Source of the DNA: Giardia intestinalis
Taxonomy: Eukaryota
Strand: one strand, 5' to 3'
DNA length: 32,836 nt
Assembly (NCBI GenBank): GCA_000002435.2
Contig: AACB03000007.1
The translations under genes were made by a program, and so were the position numbers. The first letter of the stretch is position 1; the number at the start of each line of letters is the position of its first letter. Below, piece after piece: positions 1-29,576 of the stretch. A model generated the notes under the pieces. It had not been told where the DNA came from, ran no database searches, and saw only the letters and a program-made list of their open reading frames with translations.

Positions 1-2677
1 TTTGTACATTTTCCTCCCTGCACTGTAGTACACACTTGCTTGCCAGGCTGTCATCTGTCTGATAGCAACCGCCATCTTTGAGGAGAGTATTTTCACATTG
101 AGTGCATGCTCCATTACTCACCGTAGTGCAAAATCGTGTTCGCGTATTGGCCGCACAGTTGCCATCCAGTGGTGCCTGTTGAGTGTTCTTGCACTTTGAG
201 CAGTATGCAGTTCCTCCTATCTGAGCCCCCACTCTGCGCATCCATCGTTTGTAGAACTCACGCTGCACTGGTTCATGCACGTGCCCCATTGGCAGGAGTA
301 TCAGCATCTGTATACTGAAGCATCCTCCAGCAGGACAAGCCGTACACTTATCAGCGCCCTCACCCTTGCACTCTACGCACGCATCGTTGCACTTCTTGCA
401 CTTTCTGTCAGTGTCATTTCCGTAGTAGCCCTTGAGGGTCGTGCAGTCAGATACGCATTGACTGGTTGGGGTGAGGTAGTACTCAGACAGACACTTTGTA
501 CAGACCTCCTTATCGGCACCTTCACTGGTGCACTCCAAACAGTGCTCTGTGTTACAGTTACTGATTGGTTGGCATTCAGTCGATTCAGTATTAGGTTGGA
601 GTCCTTCGTTGCACTCGCACACTTGGCTATCCTGTCCGGTGGCCTTGGGGGTAGAGTTAGCAGGGCAACTAGCAACGCACGACTTTCTGTTGAGACCAAA
701 GATGGTCTTCGTATCAGTCGTACACGTCTTACAAACCACTCCGTTGGCGCCTTTCTCACAAGTGGTGCAGTCAGTTGTTCCAGCCGACACACATGTATTG
801 CACTCCTTTGCTTCTTCATCAACGTAGTGGGTTGCCGGACAACCAGCTGTGTCAACGCACGTGCCGGTTGTGGACTCGCCATCCTTCTTCAGGTACTTCT
901 TGGTCCCAGACGTTTTACACAGGCTGCACTTCTGTTGCTCCTTGGCCACGCACACAGCGCAATTATCATCTGCACACGCGGTGCACTTCTTCTCGGTAGC
1001 GTCGATGAAGAAGCCCTCCTCATTAGTACACGCCTCTGCGCTAACACAGCTGGGTGCATCGCCAGCTTTAAAGTAGAATCCATCAACACACTCCCCACAT
1101 ATATTGTCCACCACACAGCTCTTGCAATCACCCACAGAGCATGTCACACACCCACTACCACCCTTGTTGGGCTTCTTACCACTGTCACAGGCAGTACACA
1201 CAGCGACAGTCATACCAGCTGTTGTTAGAGCTGTCGGGGCTGTGCACTGAGAGCAGCCATCTACTCCCACGTATGCCTTAGCGGTACCTTGAGGATCTAC
1301 TAGTGTGCCTAGGGGGTTACTACATGCCAACACGGACTGCTGAGCATTGGATGCCCCTGGTACCAGGAAGTACTTATTATTCTCATTAACAGCGGTACAG
1401 ACACCGTTGGCTGCTGTCTTGCACATGGACTTACCCGGCTGAGTTGACACACTATAACAACCACCCATGTATAGGAAGTATCCCGTAGTACATGATGTAC
1501 ATATATGATTATCACAAGTATTCCCATTCTTTTGACCACTATCAACACACTTCCCATCAATTGGTATCTTATTGGTCTCTCCACAGTAGGAACAGTAGTG
1601 CTTTGTGGTGCCCTGATCATCAATTATCATGGCATCACAAGCACCAGAGGTACCCCCGCAGGCAGTATCATCCTCACAGGTTTTGGTACATGTAACAGGA
1701 CTGGTACCGCTCTGCTTGTAGTTCGCTTTACAGCCAGTACACTTGAAAGTACTGGCCTCCTTTGTACACTCAGCACACCCATCGATGCCCCCATTGTTTG
1801 TGTCACTACATGAGATGCACTTTCCTGCCGGTTTTGCAACCTCAACGAGGAAGAACCCTGCCTTACAGGTCAGGCACTTATCCTCAGCAGTTTCAGCTGA
1901 GCATGTGGCACAGTTGGCGTGACAGGGGGTGCATGTTACTGAACCAACTCCGGTACTTTTGTATCCCTCCAGGCATTCTGTGCAAGTTGGATTAGCACTC
2001 GCTGTCTTCATGCAAGCCTTACAGCCAGCAATGCCTTTGTTCTTTTGTTCTGGATCCGACGCTGCGGGATCACTGCACAAACGACACACGTTGTCTTCGG
2101 TCATAAAGAGACCGTTATCAGCTCCTTGACACCCGGCGTAGTTCTTCGCCACGCAGGTCGAGGTTCCATCAAGGGTCGTCCTGGGGATCTTACTGTTATC
2201 ACAAGCTGTGCACTTCGGCTTCTTGGTAGTCGAATCAACTTCACACTGGGTACATGCTTGATCTATCGTGTTGCAGTCCCTACAAGTTCCCGACTCTGGG
2301 TCAGCATAAGTGTTTCCAGTGCACTCATTACTATTCACGCATGCATTATCCTTCAGGAACGTATTTCCCTTACAAGAGGTACACTGGGTCGCCGACGTCT
2401 CACAGGTCAGGCAAGAGTCGTTGCACTTCTCACATGCGCCGTTACTATTTAGAAAGTATCCCTCTGTGCATGCAGTACACGTGGCAGCCCCCTTGTTACT
2501 GTCTGGCGCTGTGCATGTGGCGCAGCTCTCCACTCCCTTATATCCATTCGCTCCTGTGGCATCATGACAGAGTATGCACTCCCCACCAGGGGTCACCTTG
2601 TCTGCCCCATTCTGGAATATGTACTGACTATCTGTATTACAAGCAGTGCACAGTCCTCCCTCAGCCTTTGTGCATAT
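1..2677 (-). CDS. Unit 1: partial long-type VSP. Its 3' end runs off the window start and its 5' end is at 2677. It is the paralog of the 1022-aa unit at 10272..13340.
   Basis: Nucleotides 1..2677 align almost base-for-base with 10654..13337. The start is the same ICTKAEGGLCTAC (ATA TGC ACA AAG GCT GAG.. on the minus strand, plus 2669-2677). Relative to both other long copies there is a 3-nt deletion near 88-95 and a 1-nt deletion near 52 (gtcatctg versus gtctatctg). This gives a frameshift in the last ~50 nt of the window. The second GGCY module (KDGGCYQTDRQPG) is encoded near 60-100. Confidence 0.7.
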   Translation of the reverse strand, partial: MCTKAEGGLCTACNTDSQYIFQNGADKVTPGGECILCHDATGANGYKGVESCATCTAPDSNKGAATCTACTEGYFLNSNGACEKCNDSCLTCETSATQCTSCKGNTFLKDNACVNSNECTGNTYADPESGTCRDCNTIDQACTQCEVDSTTKKPKCTACDNSKIPRTTLDGTSTCVAKNYAGCQGADNGLFMTEDNVCRLCSDPAASDPEQKNKGIAGCKACMKTASANPTCTECLEGYKSTGVGSVTCTPCHANCATCSAETAEDKCLTCKAGFFLVEVAKPAGKCISCSDTNNGGIDGCAECTKEASTFKCTGCKANYKQSGTSPVTCTKTCEDDTACGGTSGACDAMIIDDQGTTKHYCSYCGETNKIPIDGKCVDSGQKNGNTCDNHICTSCTTGYFLYMGGCYSVSTQPGKSMCKTAANGVCTAVNENNKYFLVPGASNAQQSVLACSNPLGTLVDPQGTAKAYVGVDGCSQCTAPTALTTAGMTVAVCTACDSGKKPNKGGSGCVTCSVGDCKSCVVDNICGECVDGFYFKAGDAPSCVSAEACTNEEGFFIDATEKKCTACADDNCAVCVAKEQQKCSLCKTSGTKKYLKKDGESTTGTCVDTAGCPATHYVDEEAKECNTCVSAGTTDCTTCEKGANGVVCKTCTTDTKTIFGLNRKSCVASCPANSTPKATGQDSQVCECNEGLQPNTESTECQPISNCNTEHCLECTSEGADKEVCTKCLSEYYLTPTSQCVSDCTTLKGYYGNDTDRKCKKCNDACVECKGEGADKCTACPAGGCFSIQMLILLPMGHVHEPVQREFYKRWMRRVGAQIGGTAYCSKCKNTQQAPLDGNCAANTRTRFCTTVSNGACTQCENTLLKDGGCYQTDDSLASKCVLQCREENVQ

Positions 2678-2737
2678 CTCACTCCACTATCATACTATCA
2701 CCCTCTATCACACATTGTACAGCATTCACTACCCAAG
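2678..2737 (-). promoter_or_regulatory. Inter-VSP spacer (60 nt) with a poly(A) signal AGTGAAT at 2724..2730 and a CACTATCA-type tract.
   Basis: The minus strand reads TGA CTTGGGT AGTGAAT GCTGTACAATGTGTGATAGAGGGTGATAGTATGATAGTGGAGTGAG then ATA TGC. AGTGAAT matches the Giardia AGTRAAY poly(A) signal 7 nt after the stop. Confidence 0.7.
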
Positions 2738-4585
2738 TCACGCCTTCCCCCTGCACACGAACCACCAGCAGAGGAAGCCCACGAGGCCCCCCACGACAGC
2801 GATGACAGCGACGGAGATCCCTGCTATGGCACCAGTACTGAGGCCGCTTCTGTTGCCCCCGCTGGGCTTGGTGGACACGCACGCCTCACCCTCCAGCCTG
2901 TAGTCGTCCCCACACTGGCCGCACTTGTTCTCCTCGCTGCACCTGACGCACCCGTCGATATTGCAGGCGATGCACTTCGTTCCGTCTGTGTTCGGCCTCT
3001 GGTCTTTACTGGTACAGGCCTCGCACTTATCGCCTGCTCCACAGTGCGAGCATCCGTCAACGGTACATGCGAAGCACCCGCTCCCAGCCAGGTTGGGCTT
3101 GTTGTTGTTGGTACACGCTGTACACACAGCAGCAGTCATACCAGTCTCAGATGGAGCTGCTGGGGCCGTACATGCCGAACAGCCATCTACCCCCACATAT
3201 GCCTTAGAGGTATCACCAGTGCCTACTAGTGTGCCAAGGGAGTTGCTACATGCTAATACAGACTGATTCTGATTGGTTGCCCCAGGGACTATGAAGTACC
3301 TATTGTTGGCATTAACAGCAGTACAGACACCGTTGGCTGCTGTCTTGCACATATGTTGTCCAGGTACTGTATCAACCTTGTAACAACCTCCCATATACAA
3401 GAAGTAGTTGTTAGTGCATTGTGTACATACACCTTGATCACATTGATTATTTGCTTTAGCACTATTACACTTCCCATCTATAGGATACGTATTAGCTTCT
3501 CCACAGTATGAGCAATAATGATGCTCTACACCCTTATCATCAATCACTATTGCATCGCAGGCACCAGAAGTTCCTCCACAGGCAGTATCATCTTCACAGA
3601 TCTTGGTGCATGTGACAGAGCCAGTACTGCCCTCCTTGCGATAGTTAGGCTTACAGTCAGTGCACTTGAAAGCACCGTTGTTAGAGCAGACACTGCAGCC
3701 TTCGCGACCCTTATCGTCTACGCTATCGCATGGGACGCACTTCTTCCCCTGTTGATCTGTAGTAGTTACTAAGAAGTATCCAGTCTTGCAGGTTTCACAC
3801 TTATTTGGATCACCAGCAACAGAGCATGTGGCACAGTTATCACCACACTTGTCTGTACATGTACTAGTACCACTATCAAAGAAGTATCCATCGAGACAGG
3901 CTGAGCAGGTTGGATTGTCACTTCCTGTTTTCGTACATGTCTTGCAGTTGGCCTTTCCTTCGTTACCAAGAGTTGAATCTGTCACATCACTACAAAGAGC
4001 ACACGTTTTGTCCTCCTTCATAAATAAGGCCTCGTCAGCGCCCTCGCATCCTTCAAGCGTCTTCGCCACGCAGGTCGATGTCCCGTCGAGGGCCGTCCTG
4101 GGGGTCTTATTGGTCCCGCAGTTAGTGCACTTTGGCTTCCCCGTGGCCTTGTCGAAGGAGCATGCCGTGCACTCTGCGTGTATCGTACTACATGCCTTGC
4201 ATGTTCCCGACTCCGGGTCAGCATACTTATCATTACCACAGCTATCAGTACATTGATTCCCATTGAGGTACTTCCCCTCTGGACACGATGTGCACTGGGT
4301 CGCCGATGTCTCACAGGTGGCACAGTTCCCCTCGCATGGCTTACAAAGCTTGTTGTTTAGGAAGTACCCCTCTTGACAGGTATTACACGTGGCAGGTCCT
4401 GCATTCCCTGGTGCCGTACACTTGAGACAGTTGGCCACTCCCGTATATCCATTCGCTCCCTTGATATCAGAGCACAGGATGCACTCACTACCAGGGGTCA
4501 CCTTGTCTGCCCTGTTCTGGAATATGTACTTGTTATCTGTCTTACAAGCAGTGCACAGTCCATTACTGGCCTTTGTACATATCAC
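2738..4585 (-). CDS. Unit 2: VSP paralog (615 codons, type a). The frame is intact, but there is no ATG and no signal peptide.
   Basis: ORF 2738..4585 ends in ..[17 protein letters not shown] then TGA. It contains a YMGGCY motif and many CXXC pairs. Its first codon is GTG (plus 4583-4585 is cac). An in-frame TAG lies 3 codons upstream. The N-terminus is ICTKASNGLCTACK. Confidence 0.85.
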   Translation of the reverse strand: MICTKASNGLCTACKTDNKYIFQNRADKVTPGSECILCSDIKGANGYTGVANCLKCTAPGNAGPATCNTCQEGYFLNNKLCKPCEGNCATCETSATQCTSCPEGKYLNGNQCTDSCGNDKYADPESGTCKACSTIHAECTACSFDKATGKPKCTNCGTNKTPRTALDGTSTCVAKTLEGCEGADEALFMKEDKTCALCSDVTDSTLGNEGKANCKTCTKTGSDNPTCSACLDGYFFDSGTSTCTDKCGDNCATCSVAGDPNKCETCKTGYFLVTTTDQQGKKCVPCDSVDDKGREGCSVCSNNGAFKCTDCKPNYRKEGSTGSVTCTKICEDDTACGGTSGACDAIVIDDKGVEHHYCSYCGEANTYPIDGKCNSAKANNQCDQGVCTQCTNNYFLYMGGCYKVDTVPGQHMCKTAANGVCTAVNANNRYFIVPGATNQNQSVLACSNSLGTLVGTGDTSKAYVGVDGCSACTAPAAPSETGMTAAVCTACTNNNKPNLAGSGCFACTVDGCSHCGAGDKCEACTSKDQRPNTDGTKCIACNIDGCVRCSEENKCGQCGDDYRLEGEACVSTKPSGGNRSGLSTGAIAGISVAVIAVVGGLVGFLCWWFVCRGKA

Positions 4586-4642
4586 ACTCCACTATCATAC
4601 TATCACCCTCTATCACACATTGTACAGCATTCACTACCCAAG
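4586..4642 (-). promoter_or_regulatory. Inter-VSP spacer (57 nt) with a poly(A) signal at 4629..4635.
   Basis: It has the same architecture. The plus strand is atcacactccactatcatactatcaccctctatcacacattgtacagcattcactacccaag. Confidence 0.7.
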
Positions 4643-6508
4643 TCACGCCTTCCCTCTACATATGAACCACCAGCAGAGGAAGCCCACGAGGCCCCCCACG
4701 ACAGCGACCACAGCGACGGAGATCCCCGCGATGGCCCCCGTGGAGAGCCCGCTCCTGTTGGTGCCAGAGGACACACACATGCCATCCCTCGGGACATAGC
4801 CCTCCTCGCACTCCCCGCAGACGCCCTCTGCGCTGCACCGCATGCACCTCTCTATGTCACAGACAATGCACTGGGTGCCGTCCAGGCTGGGTCTCTGGTC
4901 TTTATTGGTACATGCCTCACACTTGTTGTCTGCGCTGCAGTGAGAGCAGCCCTGGGCCGGACACACATAGCAGGTGCTTCCAGCCATGTTGGGCTTCTTA
5001 TTGTCCTCAGCACACACCTCGCACATCCCGTCGATGGCGCAGCTCTTGCACCCGCCGACCGCACACAGGGTGCACCCGCTGCCATCCTTGTTGGGCTTCT
5101 TCGTCTTGTCGCACGCACTACAGACCGCCGCGGCCATCGCATTGGCGGCTGGCGCCTGCGGGGCCGCGCACGCCGTGCAGTCTAGCACGCCGACGTACGC
5201 CTTGTCGCCCGCGGTCGCTCCCACAGGGTTGCCACAGGCAAGCACGGACTGCTGAGCAGCAGAGTCCCCGGGAATCTTGAAGTAGCGCCCGACCGGTGTG
5301 GTGCAGAACCCACTTGGAGCCGCAGAGCACATGAGGTTGCCAGGAGCCTTCGACACATCATAGCAACCACCCATATAGAGGAAGTAGTTGTTGGTGCACC
5401 GCGTACATACGCCATCGGCGCAGGTATTACCTGCAAGTGCATTGGTGCACTTCCCATTAATAGGGCCATAGCCGGCGCCAACACACTTTGAACAGTAAGA
5501 GAGCATGCTGCCGTCGTTGCCGACCACGATGGCGTCGCAGGCCCCTGCTGTCCCTCCACATGCAGTCTCATCTTCACAGGTCTTTGTACATGTGAGGTCG
5601 CTAGGTTCTCCGCTGGGTCTGTAGTTGGGCTTACATTCAGTGCATTTGAGGGACCCCACGCCGCCTGTGCACTCGGCACAGCCTGGAATCCCACTTGTCT
5701 CGTCATCACAGAGAACGCATGTCTTAGGCGGGCCATCCTTAAGGAAGTACCCCGGCATGCATCTTGTACATGTGTTGATTTGACCCGCTGTTCCGCACTC
5801 TGCGCAGTTTCCTGTGCAGGCCTCGCAGGCGTTTCCGTTGACTTTATACCCGTCGACACAAGCCTCGCAGGTGCCTTTTGCGGTGCACAGCTTGCAGTTC
5901 TGGACTCCGCCCTTACCATTGTCGCCGCACTGCACGCACTTCGAGGCGTCGTAGAAGTGCGTCTTGCCCACTTTGCACTCGGCCTCATCAACACAGGTCG
6001 TTGTCCCATCCAGCTCGTCTCTGACCGTCTTACTACCGCAGTCGGTGCACTTCGGCTTTCCCGTGGCGTCGTCGTATGCACACGCGGTGCATCCTTGTAT
6101 CTCACTGCAGGCCTTACAGGTCCAGGTCTTCTTGTCCGCATAGTTACCATTGTCACATCCACCAGCATCTACACAAGTGTTACCATCCTTCAGGTACTTC
6201 CCCTCAACGCAGGCGGTACACTGAGTCGGAGTATCAGCTGAGCAAGCAGAGCAGCCGTCTCCGCACTTCACACATGCACTGTCCTTCGTAACGAACCCTG
6301 CTTGACACTCTGTACACGTGGCCGGTCCGCTAGTGCCCGTGTGGGAGCATTCTGAGCATCCAGCGACTCCCATGACCCCGTTTCTATCTGTCGTATCAGA
6401 GCACAGTATGCACTCACTACCCTTCTCTGGTGTTGCAGCCGGGTTCTTGAACAGGCCGTTATCTGCCTTACAAGCAGTGCACAGTCCTCCCTCAGCCTTT
6501 GTGCATAT
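4643..6508 (-). CDS. Unit 3: VSP paralog (type b, about 621 codons measured from ICTKAEGG). It has an in-frame ATG at 6371-6373 (MGVAGCSECSH) 45 codons into the unit.
   Basis: ORF 4643..6373 ends in ..WWFICRGKA then stop. The frame stays open upstream to 6508 (ICTKAEGGLCTACKADNGLFKNPAATPEKGSECILCSDTTDRNGV-MGVAG..). It contains a GGCY motif. The C-terminal module is ..CDKTKKPNKDGSGCTLCAVGGCKSC... Confidence 0.85.
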   Translation of the reverse strand: MCTKAEGGLCTACKADNGLFKNPAATPEKGSECILCSDTTDRNGVMGVAGCSECSHTGTSGPATCTECQAGFVTKDSACVKCGDGCSACSADTPTQCTACVEGKYLKDGNTCVDAGGCDNGNYADKKTWTCKACSEIQGCTACAYDDATGKPKCTDCGSKTVRDELDGTTTCVDEAECKVGKTHFYDASKCVQCGDNGKGGVQNCKLCTAKGTCEACVDGYKVNGNACEACTGNCAECGTAGQINTCTRCMPGYFLKDGPPKTCVLCDDETSGIPGCAECTGGVGSLKCTECKPNYRPSGEPSDLTCTKTCEDETACGGTAGACDAIVVGNDGSMLSYCSKCVGAGYGPINGKCTNALAGNTCADGVCTRCTNNYFLYMGGCYDVSKAPGNLMCSAAPSGFCTTPVGRYFKIPGDSAAQQSVLACGNPVGATAGDKAYVGVLDCTACAAPQAPAANAMAAAVCSACDKTKKPNKDGSGCTLCAVGGCKSCAIDGMCEVCAEDNKKPNMAGSTCYVCPAQGCSHCSADNKCEACTNKDQRPSLDGTQCIVCDIERCMRCSAEGVCGECEEGYVPRDGMCVSSGTNRSGLSTGAIAGISVAVVAVVGGLVGFLCWWFICRGKA

Positions 6509-6568
6509 CTCACTCCACTATCATACTATCACCCTCTATCACACATTGTACAGCATTCACTACCCAAG
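6509..6568 (-). promoter_or_regulatory. Inter-VSP spacer (60 nt) with a poly(A) signal at 6555..6561.
   Basis: Same conserved spacer. Confidence 0.7.
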
Positions 6569-8320
6569 TCACGCCTTCCCCCTGCACACGAACCACCAGC
6601 AGAGGAAGCCCACGAGGCCCCCCACGACAGCGATGACAGCGACGGAGATCCCCGCGATGGCCCCCGTGGAGAGCCCGCCCCTGTTGGTACTCATAGACAC
6701 ACAGGAGGTCCCACTGCTGTCTAGACTGTACCCATCAACACACTCCCCACACACATCATCCACCACACAGCTCTTGCAGTCACTCACAGAGCACAGCACA
6801 CACCCACTACCATCCCTGTTGGGCTTCTTACTACTGTCACAAGAGGTACACACAGCGACAGTCATACCAGCCCCAGTCAGAGCTGCTGGGGCTGTACACT
6901 GCGAACAGCCATCCACCCCCACATATGCCTTAGAGGTATCACCAGTGCCTACTAGTGTGCCAAGGGAGTTGCTACATGCCAATACAGACTGATTCTGATT
7001 GGTTGCCCCAGGGACTATGAAGTACCTATTGTTGGCATTAACAGCGGTACAGACACCGTTGGCTGCTGTCTTGCACATATGTTGTCCAGGTACTGTATCA
7101 ACCTTGTAACAACCTCCCATATACAAGAAGTAGTTGTTAGTGCATTGTGTACATACACCTTGATCACATTGATTATTTGCTTTAGCACTATTACACTTCC
7201 CATCTATAGGATACGTATTAGCTTCTCCACAGTATGAGCAATAATGATGCTCTACACCCTTATCATCAATCACTATTGCATCGCAGGCACCAGAAGTTCC
7301 TCCACAGGCAGTATCATCTTCACAGATCTTGGTGCATGTGACAGAGCCAGTACTGCCCTCCTTGCGATAGTTAGGCTTACAGTCAGTGCACTTGAAAGCA
7401 CCGTTGTTAGAGCAGACACTGCAGCCTTCGCGACCCTTATCGTCTACGCTATCGCATGGGACGCACTTCTTCCCCTGTTGATCTGTAGTAGTTACTAAGA
7501 AGTATCCAGTCTTGCAGGTTTCACACTTATTTGGATCACCAGCAACAGAGCATGTGGCACAGTTATCACCACACTTGTCTGTACATGTACTAGTACCACT
7601 ATCAAAGAAGTATCCATCGAGACAGGCTGAGCAGGTTGGATTGTCACTTCCTGTTTTCGTACATGTCTTGCAGTTGGCCTTTCCTTCGTTACCAAGAGTT
7701 GAATCTGTCACATCACTACAAAGAGCACACGTTTTGTCCTCCTTCATAAATAAGGCCTCGTCAGCGCCCTCGCATCCTTCAAGCGTCTTCGCCACGCAGG
7801 TCGATGTCCCGTCGAGGGCCGTCCTGGGGGTCTTATTGGTCCCGCAGTTAGTGCACTTCGGCTTCCCCGTGGCCTTGTCGAAGGAGCATGCCGTGCACTC
7901 TGCGTGTATCGTACTACATGCCTTGCATGTTCCCGACTCCGGGTCAGCATAAGTGTTTCCATCGCATCCAGTATCTTGTACACATTGATTACTCTTCAGG
8001 TACTTCCCCTCTGGGCACGATGTACAATGATTCTGACCACTTCCATCGCAGGTCAGACAAGCTTCATTACATTTGACACATGTCTGAGAGTTCTTGTAGT
8101 ATCCATCTTGGCACTCTGTACACGTGGCAGGTCCTGGACTACTGTCTGACTTGGTACACTGTGCGCAGTTAGCCACCCCTGTATATCCATCTGCCCCATT
8201 GACATCATGACAGAGGATGCACTCACTACCAGGCTTCTGAGGTGTAACTGGGTTCTTGAACAGGCCGTTAGCTGTCTTACAAGCAGTGCACACTCCATCA
8301 CTGGCTGCTGTGCATATCAC
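6569..8320 (-). CDS. Unit 4: VSP paralog (583 codons, type c). It is intact and has no ATG.
   Basis: The ORF ends CRGKA then stop. Its start is GTG (8318-8320 cac) preceded by an in-frame TAG. The N-terminus is ICTAASDGVCTACKTANGLFKNPVTPQKPGSECILCHDVNG. The central ~430 aa are identical to unit 2. The C-terminal module is CDSSKKPNRDGSGCVLCSVSDCKSCVVDDVCGECVDGYSLDSSGTSCVSMSTNRGG. Confidence 0.85.
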   Translation of the reverse strand: MICTAASDGVCTACKTANGLFKNPVTPQKPGSECILCHDVNGADGYTGVANCAQCTKSDSSPGPATCTECQDGYYKNSQTCVKCNEACLTCDGSGQNHCTSCPEGKYLKSNQCVQDTGCDGNTYADPESGTCKACSTIHAECTACSFDKATGKPKCTNCGTNKTPRTALDGTSTCVAKTLEGCEGADEALFMKEDKTCALCSDVTDSTLGNEGKANCKTCTKTGSDNPTCSACLDGYFFDSGTSTCTDKCGDNCATCSVAGDPNKCETCKTGYFLVTTTDQQGKKCVPCDSVDDKGREGCSVCSNNGAFKCTDCKPNYRKEGSTGSVTCTKICEDDTACGGTSGACDAIVIDDKGVEHHYCSYCGEANTYPIDGKCNSAKANNQCDQGVCTQCTNNYFLYMGGCYKVDTVPGQHMCKTAANGVCTAVNANNRYFIVPGATNQNQSVLACSNSLGTLVGTGDTSKAYVGVDGCSQCTAPAALTGAGMTVAVCTSCDSSKKPNRDGSGCVLCSVSDCKSCVVDDVCGECVDGYSLDSSGTSCVSMSTNRGGLSTGAIAGISVAVIAVVGGLVGFLCWWFVCRGKA

Positions 8321-8387
8321 ACTCCACTATCACACATTATCACACTATCACCTTCTATCACACATTGTACAGCATTCACTACCTAAG
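8321..8387 (-). promoter_or_regulatory. Inter-VSP spacer (67 nt) with a poly(A) signal at 8374..8380. It carries an extra cacacattat insertion.
   Basis: The minus strand reads TGA CTTAGGT AGTGAAT. This is an exact match to the extended VSP 3' motif remembered as ACTYAGRTAGTRAAY. The CACTATCA tract is longer here. Confidence 0.7.
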
Positions 8388-10211
8388 TCACGCCTTCCCC
8401 CTGCACACGAACCACCAGCAGAGGAAGCCCACGAGGCCCCCCACGACAGCGATGACAGCCACGGAGATCCCTGCTATGGCACCAGTACTGAGGCCGCTTC
8501 TGTTGCCCCCGCTGGGCTTGGTGGACACGCACGCCTCACCCTCCAGCCTGTAGTCGTCCCCGCACTGGCCGCACTTGTTCTCCTCGCTGCACCTGACGCA
8601 CCCGTCGATATTGCAGGCGATGCACTTCGTTCCGTCTGTGTTCGGCCTCTGGTCTTTACTGGTACAGGCCTCGCACTTATCGCCTGCTCCACAGTGCGAG
8701 CATCCGTCAACGGTACATGCGAAGCACCCGCTCCCAGCCAGGTTGGGCTTGTTGTTGTTGGTACACGCTGTACACACAGCAGCAGTCATGCCACCATCAG
8801 ATGGAGCTGCTGGGGCTGTACACTGTGAACAGTTGAGTACCCCCACGTATGCCTTAGCAGTATCACCAGTGCCTACTAGTGTGCCTAGGGGGTTCTCGCA
8901 GGCCAGGACAGACTGATCAGTATTGGATGCCCCCGGGACCAGGAAGTACCGGCCGTTCTCGCTGGGGGCGGTGCACCTCCCTCCCTCGGCAGTCTTGCAC
9001 ATGTGGCTGCCAGGAGCCTTCGACACATCATAGCAGCCGCCCATGTACAGGAAGAACCCGGCAGCACACCGGGTGCAGACGCCATTGGCACAGGTGTTGT
9101 CACCCTTAGTTCCTGTGCAGATCCCATCGATGGGGAACGTGGCGGGGTCTCCGCACAGCGAGCAGTACTGGGAGAACGCCCCGGCGCTGTCAACGACGAC
9201 CGCCCCGCAGGCCCCAGACGTCCCCCCGCAGGCCGTGGGGTCCTCGCAGGCCTTTGTGCACTTCACCGGATTGGTTCCCTCCTTGCGATAGTTGGACTTG
9301 CAATCGGTGCATGTAGGGGTTAGGCCGCTGTTACATTGGGAGCACCCCTCGATGCCATTGTCGGCTTTACTGTCGCAGGCGAAGCACTTACCAGCAGAGC
9401 CGGGTTGTTTCATGAAGAATCCAGGCTTGCATTTAGTGCACTGATCATTGCCAGCAGCAGAGCATGTAGCACAGTTGGCACCGCAAGCTGTGCATGTATC
9501 AGAACCAAAGTATCCGTCGAGGCAAGCTGAGCAGGTCGGCTTGGCTCCGTTCTTCTTACACGTTTTACAATTAGCAATCCCCTTGTCGTTTGCTTCTGTT
9601 CCTGTTGTTGTATCACTGCATAATATGCACTTGGTGCTATCATCACTCAGAAAGTGGGATCCGTCGACGTTATCTGTTGCGCACCCAGCATCATCGACGC
9701 AAGTGGTTGTCCCATCCAGCTCTGTCTTCACCTTCTTATTGTTACAGGCGGTGCACTGGGGCTTGCTGACAGTCGTGTTGTACTCACACGCGGTGCAATC
9801 TGCTATACCAGACTCCTTGCATGTCATTGTCATAGGGTCAGCATAAGTGTTTCCAGTGCATCCATCACTATTCACGCATGCATTATCCTTCAGGAACGTA
9901 TTTCCCTTACAAGAGGTACACTGGGTCGCCGATGTCTCACAGGTCAGACAAGTACCATCACATTTGGTACATGCCTGAGAGTCCATGTAGTACCCATCTT
10001 GACACTCGGTGCACGTGGCCGCTCCTGTATTGCCACCAGGTGCCGTGCACTTGAGACAGTTGGCCACTCCCTTGTTCTCATTCGCTCCTGTGGCATCATG
10101 ACAGAGGATGCACTCCCCACCAGGGGTCACCTTGTCTGCCCCATTCTGGAATATGTACTGACTATCTGTATTACAAGCAGTGCACAGTCCTCCCTCAGCC
10201 TTTGTGCATAT
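8388..10211 (-). CDS. Unit 5: VSP paralog (about 607 codons, type d). It is intact and has no ATG.
   Basis: ORF 8388..10130 starts at a GTG (reading VTPGGE). The frame is open upstream to 10211 with ICTKAEGGLCTACNTDSQYIFQNGADKVTPGGECILCHD. It ends in ..WWFVCRGKA then stop. The C-terminal module is identical to unit 2 ([90 protein letters not shown]). Confidence 0.85.
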   Translation of the reverse strand: MCTKAEGGLCTACNTDSQYIFQNGADKVTPGGECILCHDATGANENKGVANCLKCTAPGGNTGAATCTECQDGYYMDSQACTKCDGTCLTCETSATQCTSCKGNTFLKDNACVNSDGCTGNTYADPMTMTCKESGIADCTACEYNTTVSKPQCTACNNKKVKTELDGTTTCVDDAGCATDNVDGSHFLSDDSTKCILCSDTTTGTEANDKGIANCKTCKKNGAKPTCSACLDGYFGSDTCTACGANCATCSAAGNDQCTKCKPGFFMKQPGSAGKCFACDSKADNGIEGCSQCNSGLTPTCTDCKSNYRKEGTNPVKCTKACEDPTACGGTSGACGAVVVDSAGAFSQYCSLCGDPATFPIDGICTGTKGDNTCANGVCTRCAAGFFLYMGGCYDVSKAPGSHMCKTAEGGRCTAPSENGRYFLVPGASNTDQSVLACENPLGTLVGTGDTAKAYVGVLNCSQCTAPAAPSDGGMTAAVCTACTNNNKPNLAGSGCFACTVDGCSHCGAGDKCEACTSKDQRPNTDGTKCIACNIDGCVRCSEENKCGQCGDDYRLEGEACVSTKPSGGNRSGLSTGAIAGISVAVIAVVGGLVGFLCWWFVCRGKA

Positions 10212-10271
10212 CTCACTCCACTATCATACTATCACCCTCTATCACACATTGTACAGCATTCACTACCTAAG
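10212..10271 (-). promoter_or_regulatory. Inter-VSP spacer (60 nt) with a poly(A) signal at 10258..10264.
   Basis: TGA CTTAGGT AGTGAAT variant. Same tract. Confidence 0.7.
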
Positions 10272-13200
10272 TCACGCCTTCCCCCTGCACACGAACCACC
10301 AACACAAGAAGCCCACGAGGCCCCCCACGACAGCGATGACAGCCACGGAGATCCCTGCTATGGCACCAGTACTGAGGCCGCTCTTGTTGACGCTTCCGCC
10401 GGTGTTGTCGCCAGTGCCGTCGCCCATCACGAAGCACATGAACGCACCGGTGGATGACACCGTGCACTGCCTGCACCCAGCGAGCCCCTCAGAGCACGGA
10501 TTACACTTTGTCCCAGCACTCTGCGGTTTGTAATATCCAGTGCTGCATGTAGCACAGGCGTTAGCGTCGTTAGCAGCCGTGCATGTCTCGCAGCTAAGAT
10601 GGCACCTTTTATTGGAACAATCGCCATTATCAGCCGTTAGACCACTGGCACATTTTGTACATTTTCCTCCCTGCACTGTAGTACACACTTGCTTGCCAGG
10701 CTGTCTATCTGTCTGATAGCAACCGCCATCTTTGAGGAAGTAGTTATTTTCACATTGAGTGCATGCTCCATTACTCACCGTAGTGCAAAATCGTGTTCGC
10801 GTATTGGCCGCACAGTTGCCATCCAGTGGTGCCTGTTGAGTGTTCTTGCACTTTGAGCAGTATGCAGTTCCTCCTATCTGAGCCCCACACTCTGCGCATC
10901 CATCGTTTGTAGAACTCACGCTGCACTGGTTCATGCACGTGCCCCCATTGGCAGGAGTATCAGCATCTGTATACTGAAGCATCCTCCCAGCAGGACAAGC
11001 CGTACACTTATCAGCGCCCTCACCCTTGCACTCTACGCACGCATCGTTGCACTTCTTGCACTTTCTGTCAGTGTCATTTCCGTAGTAGCCCTTGAGGGTC
11101 GTGCAGTCAGATACGCATTGACTGGTTGGGGTGAGGTAGTACTCAGACAGACACTTTGTACAGACCTCCTTATCGGCACCTTCACTGGTGCACTCCAAAC
11201 AGTGCTCTGTGTTACAGTTACTGATTGGTTGGCATTCAGTCGATTCAGTATTAGGTTGGAGTCCTTCGTTGCACTCGCACACTTGGCTATCCTGTCCGGT
11301 GGCCTTGGGGGTAGAGTTAGCAGGGCAACTAGCAACGCACGACTTTCTGTTGAGACCAAAGATGGTCTTCGTATCAGTCGTACACGTCTTACAAACCACT
11401 CCGTTGGCGCCTTTCTCACAAGTGGTGCAGTCAGTTGTTCCAGCCGACACACATGTATTGCACTCCTTTGCTTCTTCATCAACGTAGTGGGTTGCCGGAC
11501 AACCAGCTGTGTCAACGCACGTGCCGGTTGTGGACTCGCCATCCTTCTTCAGGTACTTCTTGGTCCCAGACGTTTTACACAGGCTGCACTTCTGTTGCTC
11601 CTTGGCCACGCACACAGCGCAATTATCATCTGCACACGCGGTGCACTTCTTCTCGGTAGCGTCGATGAAGAAGCCCTCCTCATTAGTACACGCCTCTGCG
11701 CTAACACAGCTGGGTGCATCGCCAGCTTTAAAGTAGAATCCATCAACACACTCCCCACATATATTGTCCACCACACAGCTCTTGCAATCACCCACAGAGC
11801 ATGTCACACACCCACTACCACCCTTGTTGGGCTTCTTACCACTGTCACAGGCAGTACACACAGCGGCAGCCATACCAACTGTTGTTAGAGCTGCTGGGGC
11901 TGTACACTGGGAGCAGCCATGTACCCCCACATATGCCTTAGCGGTACCTTGAGGATCTACTAGTGTGCCTAGGGGGTTACTACATGCCAACACGGACTGC
12001 TGAGCATTGGATGCCCCTGGTACCAGGAAGTACTTATTATTCTCATTAACAGCGGTACAGACACCGTTGGCTGCTGTCTTGCACATGGACTTACCCGGCT
12101 GAGTTGACACACTATAACAACCACCCATGTATAGGAAGTATCCCGTAGTACATGATGTACATATATGATTATCACAAGTATTCCCATTCTTTTGACCACT
12201 ATCAACACACTTCCCATCAATTGGTATCTTATTGGTCTCTCCACAGTAGGAACAGTAGTGCTTTGTGGTGCCCTGATCATCAATTATCATGGCATCACAA
12301 GCACCAGAGGTACCCCCGCAGGCAGTATCATCCTCACAGGTTTTGGTACATGTAACAGGACTGGTACCGCTCTGCTTGTAGTTCGCTTTACAGCCAGTAC
12401 ACTTGAAAGTACTGGCCTCCTTTGTACACTCAGCACACCCATCGATGCCCCCATTGTTTGTGTCACTACATGAGATGCACTTTCCTGCCGGTTTTGCAAC
12501 CTCAACGAGGAAGAACCCTGCCTTACAGGTCAGGCACTTATCCTCAGCAGTTTCAGCTGAGCATGTGGCACAGTTGGCGTGACAGGGGGTGCATGTTACT
12601 GAACCAACTCCGGTACTTTTGTATCCCTCCAGGCATTCTGTGCAAGTTGGATTAGCACTCGCTGTCTTCATGCAAGCCTTACAGCCAGCAATGCCTTTGT
12701 TCTTTTGTTCTGGATCCGACGCTGCGGGATCACTGCACAAACGACACACGTTGTCTTCGGTCATAAAGAGACCGTTATCAGCTCCTTGACACCCGGCGTA
12801 GTTCTTCGCCACGCAGGTCGAGGTTCCATCAAGGGTCGTCCTGGGGATCTTACTGCTATCACAAGCTGTGCACTTCGGCTTCTTGGTAGTCGAATCAACT
12901 TCACACTGGGTACATGCTTGATCTATCGTGTTGCAGTCCCTACAAGTTCCCGACTCTGGGTCAGCATAAGTGTTTCCAGTGCACTCATTACTATTCACGC
13001 ATGCATTATCCTTCAGGAACGTATTTCCCTTACAAGAGGTACACTGGGTCGCCGACGTCTCACAGGTCAGGCAAGAGTCGTTGCACTTCTCACATGCGCC
13101 GTTACTATTTAGAAAGTATCCCTCTGTGCATGCAGTACACGTGGCAGCCCCCTTGTTACTGTCTGGCGCTGTGCATGTGGCGCAGCTCTCCACTCCCTTA

Positions 13201-13340
13201 TATCCATTCGCTCCTGTGGCATCATGACAGAGTATGCACTCCCCACCAGGGGTCACCTTGTCTGCCCCATTCTGGAATATGTACTGACTATCTGTATTAC
13301 AAGCAGTGCACAGTCCTCCCTCAGCCTTTGTGCATATCAC
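10272..13340 (-). CDS. Unit 6: long double-core VSP (1022 codons). It is intact and has no ATG.
   Basis: A single ORF runs from a GTG start (13338-13340) to the CRGKA stop. It has two GGCY modules: YMGGCYSVSTQPG encoded near 12100-12140, and KDGGCYQTDRQPG encoded near 10700-10740. About 440 extra Cys-rich residues are inserted between the usual C-terminal module and the TM/CRGKA tail. Confidence 0.85.
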   Translation of the reverse strand: MICTKAEGGLCTACNTDSQYIFQNGADKVTPGGECILCHDATGANGYKGVESCATCTAPDSNKGAATCTACTEGYFLNSNGACEKCNDSCLTCETSATQCTSCKGNTFLKDNACVNSNECTGNTYADPESGTCRDCNTIDQACTQCEVDSTTKKPKCTACDSSKIPRTTLDGTSTCVAKNYAGCQGADNGLFMTEDNVCRLCSDPAASDPEQKNKGIAGCKACMKTASANPTCTECLEGYKSTGVGSVTCTPCHANCATCSAETAEDKCLTCKAGFFLVEVAKPAGKCISCSDTNNGGIDGCAECTKEASTFKCTGCKANYKQSGTSPVTCTKTCEDDTACGGTSGACDAMIIDDQGTTKHYCSYCGETNKIPIDGKCVDSGQKNGNTCDNHICTSCTTGYFLYMGGCYSVSTQPGKSMCKTAANGVCTAVNENNKYFLVPGASNAQQSVLACSNPLGTLVDPQGTAKAYVGVHGCSQCTAPAALTTVGMAAAVCTACDSGKKPNKGGSGCVTCSVGDCKSCVVDNICGECVDGFYFKAGDAPSCVSAEACTNEEGFFIDATEKKCTACADDNCAVCVAKEQQKCSLCKTSGTKKYLKKDGESTTGTCVDTAGCPATHYVDEEAKECNTCVSAGTTDCTTCEKGANGVVCKTCTTDTKTIFGLNRKSCVASCPANSTPKATGQDSQVCECNEGLQPNTESTECQPISNCNTEHCLECTSEGADKEVCTKCLSEYYLTPTSQCVSDCTTLKGYYGNDTDRKCKKCNDACVECKGEGADKCTACPAGRMLQYTDADTPANGGTCMNQCSVSSTNDGCAECGAQIGGTAYCSKCKNTQQAPLDGNCAANTRTRFCTTVSNGACTQCENNYFLKDGGCYQTDRQPGKQVCTTVQGGKCTKCASGLTADNGDCSNKRCHLSCETCTAANDANACATCSTGYYKPQSAGTKCNPCSEGLAGCRQCTVSSTGAFMCFVMGDGTGDNTGGSVNKSGLSTGAIAGISVAVIAVVGGLVGFLCWWFVCRGKA

Positions 13341-13397
13341 ACTCCACTATCATACTATCACCCTCTATCACACATTGTACAGCATTCACTACCCAAG
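13341..13397 (-). promoter_or_regulatory. Inter-VSP spacer (57 nt) with a poly(A) signal at 13384..13390.
   Basis: Same conserved spacer. Confidence 0.7.
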
Positions 13398-15146: not shown

Positions 15147-15206
15147 CTCACTCCACTATCATACTATCACCCTCTATCACACATTGTACAGCATTCACTA
15201 CCCAAG
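15147..15206 (-). promoter_or_regulatory. Inter-VSP spacer (60 nt) with a poly(A) signal at 15193..15199.
   Basis: Same conserved spacer. Confidence 0.7.
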
Positions 15207-17072: not shown

Positions 17073-17132
17073 CTCACTCCACTATCATACTATCACCCTC
17101 TATCACACATTGTACAGCATTCACTACCCAAG
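17073..17132 (-). promoter_or_regulatory. Inter-VSP spacer (60 nt) with a poly(A) signal at 17119..17125.
   Basis: Same conserved spacer. Confidence 0.7.
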
Positions 17133-18941: not shown

Positions 18942-19001
18942 CTCACTCCACTATCATACTATCACCCTCTATCACACATTGTACAGCATTCACTACCCAA
19001 G
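18942..19001 (-). promoter_or_regulatory. Inter-VSP spacer (60 nt) with a poly(A) signal at 18988..18994.
   Basis: Same conserved spacer. Confidence 0.7.
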
Positions 19002-20744: not shown

Positions 20745-20822
20745 ACTCCACTATCACACTATCATCACACTATCACCCTCTATCACACACTATCACCCAT
20801 TGTACAGCATTCACTACCCAAG
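20745..20822 (-). promoter_or_regulatory. Inter-VSP spacer (78 nt, the longest) with a poly(A) signal at 20809..20815.
   Basis: The plus strand is actccactatcacactatcatcacactatcaccctctatcacacactatcacccattgtacagcattcact. It carries extra CACTATCA-like repeat units. Confidence 0.7.
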
Positions 20823-23800: not shown

Positions 23801-23878
23801 AGGTGTAACTGGGTTCTTGAACAGGCCGTTAGCTGTCTTACAAGCAGTGCACAGTCCTCCCTCAGCCTTTGTGCATAT
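20823..23878 (-). pseudogene. Unit 11: long-type VSP with a 1-nt deletion frameshift near 22447. It is split into two ORFs and has a type b N-terminus.
   Basis: ORF 22436..23776 (..HGCSQCTAPQL then stop) and ORF 20823..22457 (MYSPAALTTAGMTAAVCTAC.. to CRGKA) together are colinear with unit 6. Plus 22441-22452 reads gctgcggggctg, where unit 6 has gctgctggggctg at about 11891. The N-terminal part is open to 23878 and is of the MGVAGCSECSH type. Confidence 0.75.
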
Positions 23879-23938
23879 CTCACTCCACTATCATACTATC
23901 ACCCTCTATCACACATTGTACAGCATTCACTACCCAAG
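23879..23938 (-). promoter_or_regulatory. Inter-VSP spacer (60 nt) with a poly(A) signal at 23925..23931.
   Basis: Same conserved spacer. Confidence 0.7.
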
Positions 23939-25779: not shown

Positions 25780-25839
25780 CTCACTCCACTATCATACTAT
25801 CACCCTCTATCACACATTGTACAGCATTCACTACCCAAG
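25780..25839 (-). promoter_or_regulatory. Inter-VSP spacer (60 nt) with a poly(A) signal at 25826..25832.
   Basis: Same conserved spacer. Confidence 0.7.
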
Positions 25840-27687: not shown

Positions 27688-27755
27688 ACTCCACTATCAC
27701 ACTATCATCACACTATCACCCTCTATCACACATTGTACAGCATTCACTACCCAAG
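27688..27755 (-). promoter_or_regulatory. Inter-VSP spacer (68 nt) with a poly(A) signal at 27742..27748.
   Basis: It has an expanded tract (cactatcacactatcatcacactatcaccctctatcacacattg). Confidence 0.7.
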
Positions 27756-29502: not shown

Positions 29503-29576
29503 CACACTCCACTATCACACATTATCACACTATCACCTCTATCACACCATCACCATTGTAAGCATTCACTACCAAG
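29503..29576 (-). promoter_or_regulatory. Inter-VSP spacer (74 nt, degraded) with a poly(A) signal at 29564..29570.
   Basis: Relative to the spacer at 8321..8387 it has several indels (tgtaagcattcactaccaagtca versus tgtacagcattcactacctaagtca). Confidence 0.6.

Follow-up and report, generated by a model that had tools for sequence, protein, structure and literature searches.

Can VSP-like units that begin without a start codon or a signal peptide be expressed where they stand, and if not, what are they? This question is raised by positions 2678-2737 of a 32,836-nt stretch of Giardia intestinalis DNA (assembly GCA_000002435.2, contig AACB03000007.1), hereafter the window. We found that these 60 bases form a spacer, with 14 near-identical counterparts, in an array of VSP pseudogenes that lack a start codon and a signal peptide. 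An initial annotation, made from the letters alone, had regarded such leaderless units as notable for Giardia. The observation is correct and already published; it is not new because linear arrays of pseudo-VSPs and the reservoir idea were published in 2010, 2020, and 2022. Adam et al. 2010 (PMC2996952) described linear arrays with ~60-bp spacers and no Inr in the downstream members, and explicitly stated the hypothesis that these are cassettes for recombination. Xu et al. 2020 (PMC7000408) put forward the same array and reservoir hypothesis, and both the G. muris study of Xu et al. 2020 (PMC7641422) and Rodriguez-Walker et al. 2022 (bioRxiv 10.1101/2022.03.07.483299) regarded arrays as a gene-conversion reservoir. 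In a linear array, the unit that comes first often has a normal 5′ end, with Inr and upstream non-coding region (PMC2996952; PMC7000408). Added here are the anatomy of the decamer filler, the truncation point at aa ~95-108, a frame-specific substitution signature, and a tract in common with the intact VSP XP_001705078.1.

Organization of the array

Sixteen VSP-like units, all head to tail on the minus strand, filled the whole window (1..32836); 14 were complete (U1-U14) and two partial (U0p and U15p), and the array extended past both window ends. Units were 1809-1926 nt long, or ~3.1 kb for the long type. Pfam PF03302 (VSP) was matched in the window with E-values of 3.5e-38 and 1.1e-80. All 15 CRGKA-stop tails lay on the minus strand, and each consisted of a C-terminal transmembrane helix followed by (V/I)CRGKA and the stop. 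Linear arrays are taken to hold at least three same-strand, head-to-tail units with a mean spacer of ~60 bp, their downstream members having no Inr, start codon, or signal peptide; the 16 units found here were separated by spacers of 60-81 nt and lacked all three elements.

In 11 of the 14 complete units, an uninterrupted frame of 582-1024 codons, without an ATG start, linked the junction TAG with the CRGKA stop; the first in-frame Met was found at variable positions, from codon 49 to codon 195. Frameshifts or stops were present in U2, U4, U5, and the partial U0p and U15p (5/16 units); U15p was open for ~800 codons, then frameshifted and left the window. Near-full-length units contained 11.8-13.1% Cys and 23-45 CXXC motifs. 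Of the two sisters of the long unit U10, U15p was 99.3% identical to it, and U5, which has decayed, 88%. The last 427 residues of U14 were 99.5% identical to XP_001705784.1 of the 2007 WB annotation.

The 'M' starts in the list of open reading frames, which the initial annotation had distrusted, proved to be GTG and TTG codons from a bacterial ORF finder. Array-unit ORFs called from GTG, TTG, or an internal ATG should not be counted as VSP proteins. Plus-strand ATG ORFs had no Pfam matches and were treated as antisense artefacts.

Table 1 Coordinates of units, junctions, and elements of the flagged junction in the window.
Feature	Position	Strand	Description
U15p body	1..2686	-	starts W S E I C T K A E G G L C T A C
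U14	2738..4591	-	617 codons open from TAG to CRGKA stop; first Met, codon 191
U10, long type	10272..13346	-	1024 codons, open; 45 CXXC motifs
U8	15207..17081	-	624 codons, open; sister copy U13 at 4643-6517
Junction U14/U15p (flagged)	2678..2737	-	60 nt
CRGKA codons and TGA stop of U14	2738..2755	-	
VSP extended polyadenylation signal	2722..2738	-	A CTTGGGTAGTGAATGC; 16/17 positions of ACUUAGRUAGURAAYRY
Poly(A) core, flagged junction	2725-2730		AGTGAA
Sole ATG in unit frame	2723..2725	-	M L Y N V, then TGA TAG
Inr-like heptamer	2711..2717	-	CAATGTG; 6/7 match to VSP initiator CAatgTT
Array-specific filler	2687..2712	-	TGATAG-containing ~10-nt repeats; ends at in-frame TAG 2687-2689
Junction U13/U14	4583..4642	-	60 nt; Cys codon is TGT
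Junction U12/U13	6509..6568	-	exact consensus
Junction U11/U12	8318..8387	-	70 nt; one extra decamer; CTTAGG poly(A) variant
Junction U10/U11	10212..10271	-	60 nt; CTTAGG variant
Junction U9/U10	13338..13397	-	exact consensus, GTG variant
Junction U8/U9	15147..15206	-	exact consensus
Junction U7/U8	17073..17132	-	exact consensus
Junction U6/U7	18942..19001	-	exact consensus
Junction U5/U6	20742..20822	-	81 nt; longest filler, five TGATA repeats
Junction U4/U5	23879..23938	-	exact consensus
Junction U3/U4	25780..25839	-	exact consensus
Junction U2/U3	27685..27755	-	71 nt
Junction U1/U2	29503..29576	-	74 nt; several 1-nt deletions; frame disturbed
Junction U0p/U1	31425..31484	-	60 nt; body starts ICTQA

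Structure of the junctions

On the minus strand, positions 2678-2740 read TGA CTTGGGTAGTGAATGCTGTACAATGTGTGATAGAGGGTGATAGTATGATAGTGGAGTGAG, then ATA TGC ACA AAG GCT, and the in-frame translation of the flagged junction was stop L G stop stop M L Y N V stop stop R V I V stop stop W S E I C T K A. The elements followed one another in the order CRGKA-stop, extended poly(A) signal, TGATAG-rich filler, in-frame TAG, and WS(E/V)ICTKA of the next body (Table 1). A common sequence had been claimed for all 15 junctions. Fifteen CRGKA-stop junctions were indeed present, and the first 27 nt of the spacer occurred in 14 copies at ≤1 mismatch (0 expected from shuffles), the 15th junction departing by small indels; the full junction consensus, however, was matched exactly at only 8 of the 15. 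The junction string given in the initial annotation had dropped one T (the real sequence is GTGGAG-T-GAG/GTG-ATA), although its translation was right; the single in-frame ATG opens M L Y N V and is then closed by TGA and TAG.

Junction spacing was 60 nt in 11 of 15 cases and 70, 71, 74, and 81 nt in the other four, which are 10-21 nt longer because of extra TGATAG decamers. The copy number of the filler repeat differed among junctions, tandem repeat rows of period 10 were reported by TRF at other junctions, and the 10- and 11-nt indels separating sister units fell within the filler. The poly(A) signal, A CTT(G/A)GGTAGTGAATGC, was present at 14/15 junctions and agreed at 16-17 of 17 positions with ACUUAGRUAGURAAYRY, a motif taken from Rodriguez-Walker et al. 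2022 (bioRxiv 10.1101/2022.03.07.483299). The same 17-nt signal also followed the stop of solitary intact VSPs (loci L001 and L031), beyond which the sequence diverged.

The spacer added 6-7 stops in the unit frame. Its description as a universal three-frame stop cassette was rejected, being true at only 12/15 junctions. A search for an RNA gene or structure at the spacer gave no Rfam matches in the window and a fold of z=-1.4, which was not significant.

Absence of the 5′ end

No ATG-initiated hydrophobic peptide was found in any frame at any of the 15 junctions, and neither an exact PyAATGTT initiator nor a CTRAC branch/acceptor motif occurred in any spacer. Most ATGs in or just after the spacers reached a stop within 21 residues. 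Two spacer ATGs, at junctions 29577 and 8388, had longer frames, with no hydrophobic leader at either; a 1-nt deletion put the former briefly into the VSP frame, and the latter was out of frame. The heptamer CAATGTG was located at +20 in 13/15 spacers, its ATG being followed by four codons and a stop; at the flagged junction this ATG lay in the +1 frame and gave MCDRG before the stop.

Intact homologues (P0003, P0004, and P0007; DNA in L001, L030, and L031) carried a signal peptide and a Cys-rich module of ~80-95 residues upstream of the point corresponding to the start of the array bodies, which begin at aa 95-108 of these proteins. This comparison indicates that the units are 5′-truncated by ~100 codons (about 95-108), which is more than the leader alone. 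With start codon, initiator, and signal peptide all missing, no secreted or surface VSP can be made from the units in place. On this point the initial annotation was borne out: as it had stated, all 15 junctions were without a usable ATG and a signal peptide, and we found them to be without an exact initiator as well; no hydrophobic leader followed any ATG in any frame, and the bodies are inexpressible as secreted VSPs as they stand. Two of its details did not hold. It had placed the spacer where a signal peptide of ~21 codons would be, whereas the intact homologues show that ~95-108 N-terminal codons are absent; and it had seen no initiator-like element, whereas CAATGTG, matching CAatgTT at 6 of 7 positions, is present in 13/15 spacers, though without AT-rich context.

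We also considered the filler as a decayed initiator and signal peptide, in that CAATGTG-TGATAG bears a loose resemblance to CAATGTTGTTGATAG, a sequence that would encode MLLIA. This idea is speculative and was set aside: there was no convincing alignment to the intact 5′ ends in L030 and L031 (TTTTAATGTTGTTAGCAATC), and ~100 codons are gone rather than ~15. A spliced leader or cis-intron acceptor at the spacer was likewise rejected, CTRAC being absent from all spacers.

Recombination among units and with intact VSP genes

The units were fine-scale mosaics of six families that diverged from one another by 10-30%, together with block duplicates of 99.3-99.6% identity. These near-identical duplicates show that the array grows and is reshuffled by unequal crossing-over. 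Sister units differed in tightly clustered patches (in one case, 181 nt held 22 of 37 body differences), some patch versions occurred intact in otherwise distant units, and within the first 240 nt of the body two or three alleles per segment were reassorted among units. As the differences are clustered and the mosaics combinatorial, the comparison shows short-tract gene conversion among units.

Single-site codon differences in the true frame were 56% synonymous and none involved a stop, whereas shifted-frame controls gave 11-21% synonymous differences and 13-30 stop changes. This control replaced a nucleotide gap-length spectrum (multiple-of-3 indels), in which alignments slid or broke in non-homologous mosaic patches. 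The dN/dS between units was 0.14-0.67. Random substitution at 5% divergence was calculated to close a unit with P=0.93.

In a protein-level comparison, ~310 C-terminal residues of XP_001705078.1, an intact WB VSP with a signal peptide, were 100% identical to U8/U13, whereas its N-terminal half was only ~45% identical. P0003 and P0013 had 154-190 aa in common with U7/U11 at 95-96%. The 5′ block ATATGCACAAAGGCTGAGGGAGGAnTGTGCACTGCTTGTAA hardly differed between array units and the intact L001 gene, where it lies at aa 95, and the 3′ block (TM-CRGKA-poly(A)) was conserved family-wide. When other isolates were searched for orthologues of XP_001705078.1, no relative exceeded 60% identity. The mosaics, the clustered, synonymous-biased, stop-free differences, and the XP_001705078.1 tract make historical sequence exchange between the array and expressible VSPs look real. 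Transfer could, however, go only from intact genes to the array, making it a sink rather than a source.

Discussion

The site is a spacer in a pseudo-VSP array of G. intestinalis assemblage A1, from WB or a near-identical isolate, as the match of U14 to XP_001705784.1 of WB indicates. In each unit the 3′ five-sixths of a VSP gene are kept: the sequence starts near codon 100 and takes in the CXXC-rich ectodomain, the transmembrane helix, the CRGKA tail, and the stop codon, after which the 17-nt VSP poly(A) signal and ~35-55 nt of TGATAG-decamer filler lead to the next unit. The ATG, the initiator, the signal peptide, and the first Cys-rich module (~80-95 residues) are what the unit lacks relative to an intact gene. 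We consider it probable that these leaderless units, separated by the pseudo-VSP linear-array spacer, form a silent archive exchanging modules with expressible VSPs. Homologous recombination may swap the modules, and the putative homology arms would be ICTKAEGGxCTAC, the conserved block at the 5′ end, and the likewise conserved TM-CRGKA-poly(A) signal at the 3′ end. The repertoire would be diversified over evolutionary time, the exchange not being itself the switch mechanism. What counts against an archive is that antigenic switching in Giardia is reported to be epigenetic or post-transcriptional, without DNA rearrangement (review, PMC8957917). The array shows several features of silent cassettes, namely promoterless, leaderless arrayed copies, conserved flanking blocks, and tracts in common with expressible genes. 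The suggestion in the initial annotation of a silent archive or gene-conversion donor fits the mosaic structure and the tract in common with an intact VSP.

An unlikely alternative is that unequal crossing-over multiplied a 5′-truncated VSP fragment, and that the array is now decaying, its open frames reflecting youth and homogenisation, with no contribution to the repertoire. Such 'remains of discarded vsp genes' were listed as an alternative by Adam 2010 (PMC2996952). The very recent duplicates (99.3-99.6%) agree with it, and so do the frameshifts and stops in U0p, U2, U4, U5, and U15p against sisters that are 88-99.6% identical; closed frames in 5/16 units are what unselected DNA accumulates, and this speaks against an archive. 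However, the families are 10-30% apart and yet 11/14 complete units are open, when neutral divergence of 5% would leave 7% open. Decay also fails to account for synonymous bias and absence of stops in the true frame only, for a ~310-aa tract identical to an intact VSP, which indicates recent exchange with the functional pool, or for the same junction type in other isolates with different bodies. This last point bears equally on the chance, virtually nil, that a collapsed or mis-joined repeat replaced a real signal-peptide exon. Scattered 1-nt indels (in G runs and the U2 spacer) do resemble long-read consensus errors, and the initial annotation had itself named an artefactual spacer as what would overturn its reading. 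The poly(A)-signal/filler/body architecture, though, occurred twice in L002 and once in L003, two independent short-read metagenome assemblies from other samples, and is therefore no product of the assembly process; within the window, its 15 copies vary naturally in length in decamer steps, and arrays of this kind were also obtained in the 2007 Sanger assembly. A separate metagenome scan with the poly(A)-signal and filler 18-mer gave 26 loci, each of which was a chance match in an unrelated contig.

Could the units be used directly, as protein or as RNA? Expression through internal ATGs giving tail-anchored truncated proteins, read-through, polycistronic transcription, or a spliced leader is extremely unlikely. 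The poly(A) signal is intact in every unit, neighbouring units are in the same frame across 12/15 junctions, the 2007 annotation called ATG-initiated ORFs within units (e.g. XP_001705784.1), and GenBank 'VSP S6/S7' entries match array units; one study also reported 'VSPs' without a signal peptide at the membrane, which was disputed by Rodriguez-Walker 2022 (bioRxiv 10.1101/2022.03.07.483299). Against this, no spacer has an exact Inr, AT-rich initiator, or CTRAC-type motif, frame-sharing units are separated by 6-8 in-frame stops including the TGA of the upstream unit, and the first in-frame Met, whose codon varies from unit to unit, is followed by no hydrophobic leader. Without a signal peptide the Cys-rich domain would remain cytosolic, and pseudo-VSP arrays of G. 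muris are essentially untranscribed (PMC7641422). There is a slim chance that low-level sense or antisense transcripts of the units feed the Dicer/RdRP silencing of all but one VSP mRNA. VSP-homologous non-coding tandem repeats (Gireps) are transcribed from both strands, and siRNAs have been suggested to come from them (PMC2817412); a review covers RNAi-based control of VSPs (PMC8957917), and all units contain the 3′ region conserved family-wide. Such a role would leave the coding-type substitution pattern unexplained, however, and no feature of the sequence suggested it: the spacer had no promoter-like elements, no Rfam family, and a structure of only z=-1.4.

The silent archive that we favour has close counterparts. 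The linear arrays of G. intestinalis WB have the same head-to-tail ~60-bp spacing and leaderless members, keep the CRGKA tail and poly(A) signal, and share the recombination evidence and the reservoir hypothesis, so that the window is an instance of this class; although no array of the 2010 assembly exceeded 10 units and this one has at least 16, there is no difference in kind. Pseudo-VSP arrays of G. muris (PMC7641422) are similar in their tandem copies without a signal peptide (5-23 genes), their phylogenetic signal of exchange with intact VSPs, and the reservoir proposal. Their tail is GCRGK, in contrast to CRGKA here, they are telomere-adjacent, and intact VSPs are few in G. muris (26) compared with ~136 in WB.

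In Pneumocystis, tandem MSG donor genes lack the leader-encoding 5′ segment, a conserved junction element starts the variable body, and a single UCS expression site provides promoter and leader by recombination. The leaderless arrayed donors and the conserved junction are alike in the two organisms, whereas each intact VSP of Giardia has its own Inr and signal peptide. We know of no dedicated expression site of the Pneumocystis type in Giardia, nor of a demonstration of recombination-dependent switching there. Silent cassettes also act through gene conversion in the Anaplasma msp2 and Borrelia vls systems. In T. brucei, experiments have shown that antigens can be switched by conversion into a telomeric expression site (PMC8957917; PMC13233330). 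Its large, silent, often defective VSG arrays and the mosaics formed by segmental conversion are reminiscent of the present array; its 70-bp repeats would correspond to the TGATAG filler and conserved 5′ block as the upstream element, and both have a conserved 3′ end. In Giardia, however, only historical exchange is visible, and the filler measures ~35-55 nt, any recombinogenic role of it being putative.

A stronger proposal, which we regard as improbable, is that the units are maintained as functional donors and undergo segmental conversion into intact VSPs, via both conserved blocks, on the timescale of an infection or a clonal culture. The coding-type substitution pattern and the ~310-aa XP_001705078.1 tract are compatible with this proposal and do not show it. 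If it were true, Giardia would make new mosaic antigens by recombination besides epigenetic/RNAi switching, as T. brucei does with mosaic VSGs. The window is a well-resolved example of its class, with at least 16 units, a defined truncation point and homology blocks, and an array/intact pair in U8/U13 and XP_001705078.1. Whether the Giardia repertoire grows by recombination is a question already posed, and it bears on chronic giardiasis and on the design of VSP-based vaccines.

Junction sequence and array units

On the minus strand, positions 2678-2740 read TGA, CTTGGGTAGTGAATGCTGTACAATGTGTGATAGAGGGTGATAGTATGATAGTGGAGTGAG, and then ATA TGC ACA AAG GCT, which is translated in the flanking coding frame as stop L G stop stop M L Y N V stop stop R V I V stop stop W S E I C T K A. 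This matches the translation in the initial annotation, whose nucleotide string had omitted one T before GAG/GTG. Fifteen groups encoding CRGKA and a stop were found in the window, all on the minus strand, and each was followed by a similar spacer, the first 27 nt of which occurred 14 times with at most one mismatch (0 expected, 100 shuffles). The earlier statement that all 15 junctions are alike holds for the kind of spacer (15/15) and was slightly too strong in its wording, as only eight junctions matched the full 73-nt consensus exactly. The ATA codon lay 60 nt from the stop at 11 junctions and 70, 71, 74, and 81 nt from it at the other four. Neighbouring units shared a frame at 12 of the 15 junctions, with 6-8 in-frame stops between them (the TGA of the upstream unit counted).

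The array occupies the window throughout: U0p is incomplete, U1-U14 are 14 complete units, and the partial U15p runs off the low end. Complete units were 1809-1926 nt long, except for U5 and U10 (approximately 3.1 kb). Unit translations matched Pfam PF03302 (VSP; E = 3.5e-38 and 1.1e-80), near-full-length units contained 11.8-13.1% Cys and 23-45 CXXC motifs, and all units ended in (V/I)CRGKA. The frame was open from the junction TAG to the stop in 11 of the 14 complete units (582-1024 codons); none of these began with ATG, and the first in-frame Met appeared at codons 49-195. The leaderless units noticed earlier at the junctions were confirmed, and the GTG or TTG "starts" of the ORF track, regarded there as not credible, are the product of a bacterial ORF finder.

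The frame was disrupted in U2, U4, U5, and both partial units. Many of the single-base indels in U0p, U15p, U2, and U4 were located in G runs, and U2 carried five 1-nt deletions within 120 nt; such indels could be true decay or long-read consensus errors, a tandem array being hard to polish. EGF/HCMP-like Cys-rich modules form an additional block at the C-terminus of the long-type units. Despite its length, U10 is wholly open, and its sister U5 (88% identical) contains stops and frameshifts. A Pfam search of the plus-strand antisense ORFs gave no match. These ORFs most probably arise as by-products of the codon composition of VSPs and are comparable to the overlapping ORFs deleted from the WB annotation in 2020.

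Positions of features in the array
Feature	Position	Strand
Single-base indels against sister units (97-99.6% identical), U0p	~32780-32795	
Same, U15p	~45-330	
Same, U2 5' end	29460-29577	
Same, U4	~24410	
Long-type unit (~1024 codons), U10	10272-13346	minus
Long-type unit, U5	20823-23878	minus
Long-type unit, U15p	1-2686	minus
Duplicated block, U8-U9-U10	10272-17081	minus
Duplicated block, U13-U14-U15p	1-6517	minus
U5 region matching AAN52102	22445-23743	
Long antisense ATG ORFs (up to 317 aa), some across spacers	275-1228, 15036-15749, 2564-3229, and similar	plus

The best database match was XP_001705784.1, annotated in 2007 as a "VSP" of G. lamblia ATCC 50803 (WB). This 427-aa ORF, whose called start is the first internal ATG, was 99.5% identical to U14. 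G. muris was ruled out as the source by the CRGKA tail (GCRGK in G. muris). The GenBank entry AAN52102, "variant-specific surface protein S7", was 97.7% identical to U5 over 434 aa, and AAN52101, "S6", was similar to U10 and U15p. If cDNA was the origin of these 2002 entries, transcription of array units occurs at least occasionally.

Spacer anatomy

The A of the stop codon and the following 16 nt (A CTTGGGTAGTGAATGC) fit the extended poly(A) signal ACUUAGRUAGURAAYRY, linked to VSPs and pVSPs (Rodriguez-Walker et al. 2022, bioRxiv 10.1101/2022.03.07.483299), at 16 of 17 positions, and at all 17 in the two junctions bearing CTTAGG. Exactly this stretch is common to solitary intact VSPs, beyond which the sequences diverge. 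It is followed by GTACAATGTG, in which CAATGTG agrees with the VSP initiator CAatgTT at six of seven positions. The reported lack of an initiator-like element does not hold for this motif, whose ATG encodes MCDRG and then a stop; the AT-rich context of true starts (GAATTTTAATGTT in the intact VSP loci L030 and L031) is absent. Most ATGs within or just past the spacers gave peptides of at most 21 residues; those at junctions 29577 and 8388 opened longer frames, neither with a hydrophobic leader. No Giardia-type CTRAC branch/acceptor motif was found across all spacers. The last 25-45 nt consist of approximately 10-nt repeats containing TGATAG (TRF period 10 at longer junctions). Sister units differ within this filler by indels of 10 or 11 nt, so that it acts as a small repeat prone to slippage.

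The missing 5' end

At the N-terminus, the intact VSP homologues P0003, P0004, and P0007 carry a signal peptide (MLLIALHLVTSILA..., MFQLIPLFVASALMA...), followed by a Cys-rich module, CQPDG...CGDGYFLFMGGCYKTSQ. The array bodies start past this module with WSEICTAADKGVCTTC..., at aa 95-108 of intact genes in DNA from other assemblies, and ATATGCACAAAGGCTGAGGGAGGAGTGTGCACTGCTTGTAA of the intact gene in locus L001 is nearly base-identical to the array units. By this comparison, the units lack approximately 100 codons, more than a leader, rather than the 21-codon signal peptide proposed before; the spacing of roughly 17-21 codons from the spacer ATG is fortuitous.

Other arrays are truncated differently. 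WB array members in the old annotation (P0006, P0019, and P0029) have a (GTGATA)n hexamer variant of the filler with an in-frame MLYSDSDS... (MLYSDSDSAMWCGGDSDS...); the join to the body, at LFMGGCY, lies 12 codons further upstream. Assemblage-B-type entries (P0010, P0048, P0051, and others) start with VNDPAGVSIDSLCRP, approximately 45 codons into a full-length VSP. As truncation points and filler versions differ, leaderless arrays apparently arose, or were remodelled, on more than one occasion. The VSP at 8001-10142 of L001 (ENA ERZ28528424, a 131.9-kb Giardia contig) is solitary amid housekeeping genes; upstream of its called start, the frame extends through FLLIPLFVASALMAAC, which is signal-peptide-like with no visible ATG, and the gene may be a case of start-codon loss outside an array.

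Array evolution and probable exchange with intact genes

All-against-all comparison gave about six families with mosaics: U4 resembled U8/U13 over nt 1-530 and was 98.6% identical to U11 over nt 988-1901, and U6 tracked U3 for 1589 nt and thereafter U2. A three-unit block, U8-U9-U10, is duplicated as U13-U14-U15p; the outer units were 99.3-99.5% identical, whereas U9 and U14 were only approximately 90% identical, and the middle unit was apparently replaced once the block had been copied. Differences between sister units were patchy (22 in 181 nt between U3 and U14), some patch versions reappeared intact in otherwise distant units, and over the initial 240 nt of the unit bodies, 2-3 alleles per short segment were reassorted. 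Mosaics and clustered differences are the pattern of short-tract gene conversion plus unequal crossing-over.

Single-site codon differences in seven sister pairs were 56% synonymous in the true frame, with none involving a stop, against 11-21% synonymous and 13-30 involving a stop in shifted frames; dN/dS (NG86) of the units was 0.14-0.67. In simulation, 2.9% of random substitutions created a stop, and the probability that a unit stays open was 0.07 at 5% divergence and 0.005 at 10%. Judged from this coding signature and stop rate, neutral mutation in place after leader loss could not explain the unit diversity, which would have arisen under protein-level selection and been moved later.

XP_001705078.1 (KAE8304683.1), an intact WB VSP with a signal peptide on a 4.02-Mb chromosome contig, was approximately 45% identical to U8/U13 across the first ~330 aligned residues and then, in this protein-level comparison, shifted abruptly to 100% for ~310 residues up to the tail, except for two residues in the transmembrane helix. 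P0003 and P0013 shared 190 aa (95%) and 154 aa (96%), respectively, with U7/U11. No orthologue of XP_001705078.1, sought to set the direction of transfer, was present in the sequence collection searched.

Interpretation of the array

Could the spacer be an assembly artefact? Three more junctions of the same architecture occurred in two independent ENA gut-metagenome assemblies, two in L002 (ERZ28595607) and one in L003 (ERZ27316335), with a stop, CTCAGGTAGTGAATGCT(G/A)TACAATGTG, three GTGATAnnGG decamers, GTG ATA TGC ACA, and an in-frame TAG four codons upstream of the Cys codon; an artefact is practically excluded by this recurrence. The array as an RNA source is improbable, as the window contained no Rfam family and the RNA fold of the spacer gave no significant structure. 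Unconventional expression of the units is more improbable still, and a pure graveyard of VSP fragments, the least unlikely of these alternatives, is doubtful.

Linear arrays with spacers of ~60 bp hold more than half of WB vsp genes, and their downstream members have no Inr and in some cases no ATG (Adam et al. 2010, PMC2996952); pseudo-VSP arrays have been described as a gene-conversion reservoir in G. muris (Xu et al. 2020, PMC7641422) and by Rodriguez-Walker et al. (2022). The initial annotation's reading of leaderless, putatively silent cassettes stands, and since arrays and reservoir were already published, its observation and main interpretation restate published knowledge and its claim of novelty for Giardia does not hold. 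Only the spacer anatomy, 5' truncation, artefact check, array evolution, and exchange details go beyond the literature, and all are confirmatory. The most likely reading of these sequence comparisons is a pseudo-VSP linear array that evolves through unequal crossing-over and short-tract conversion and swaps tracts with intact VSP genes, and it is probably an evolutionary reservoir.
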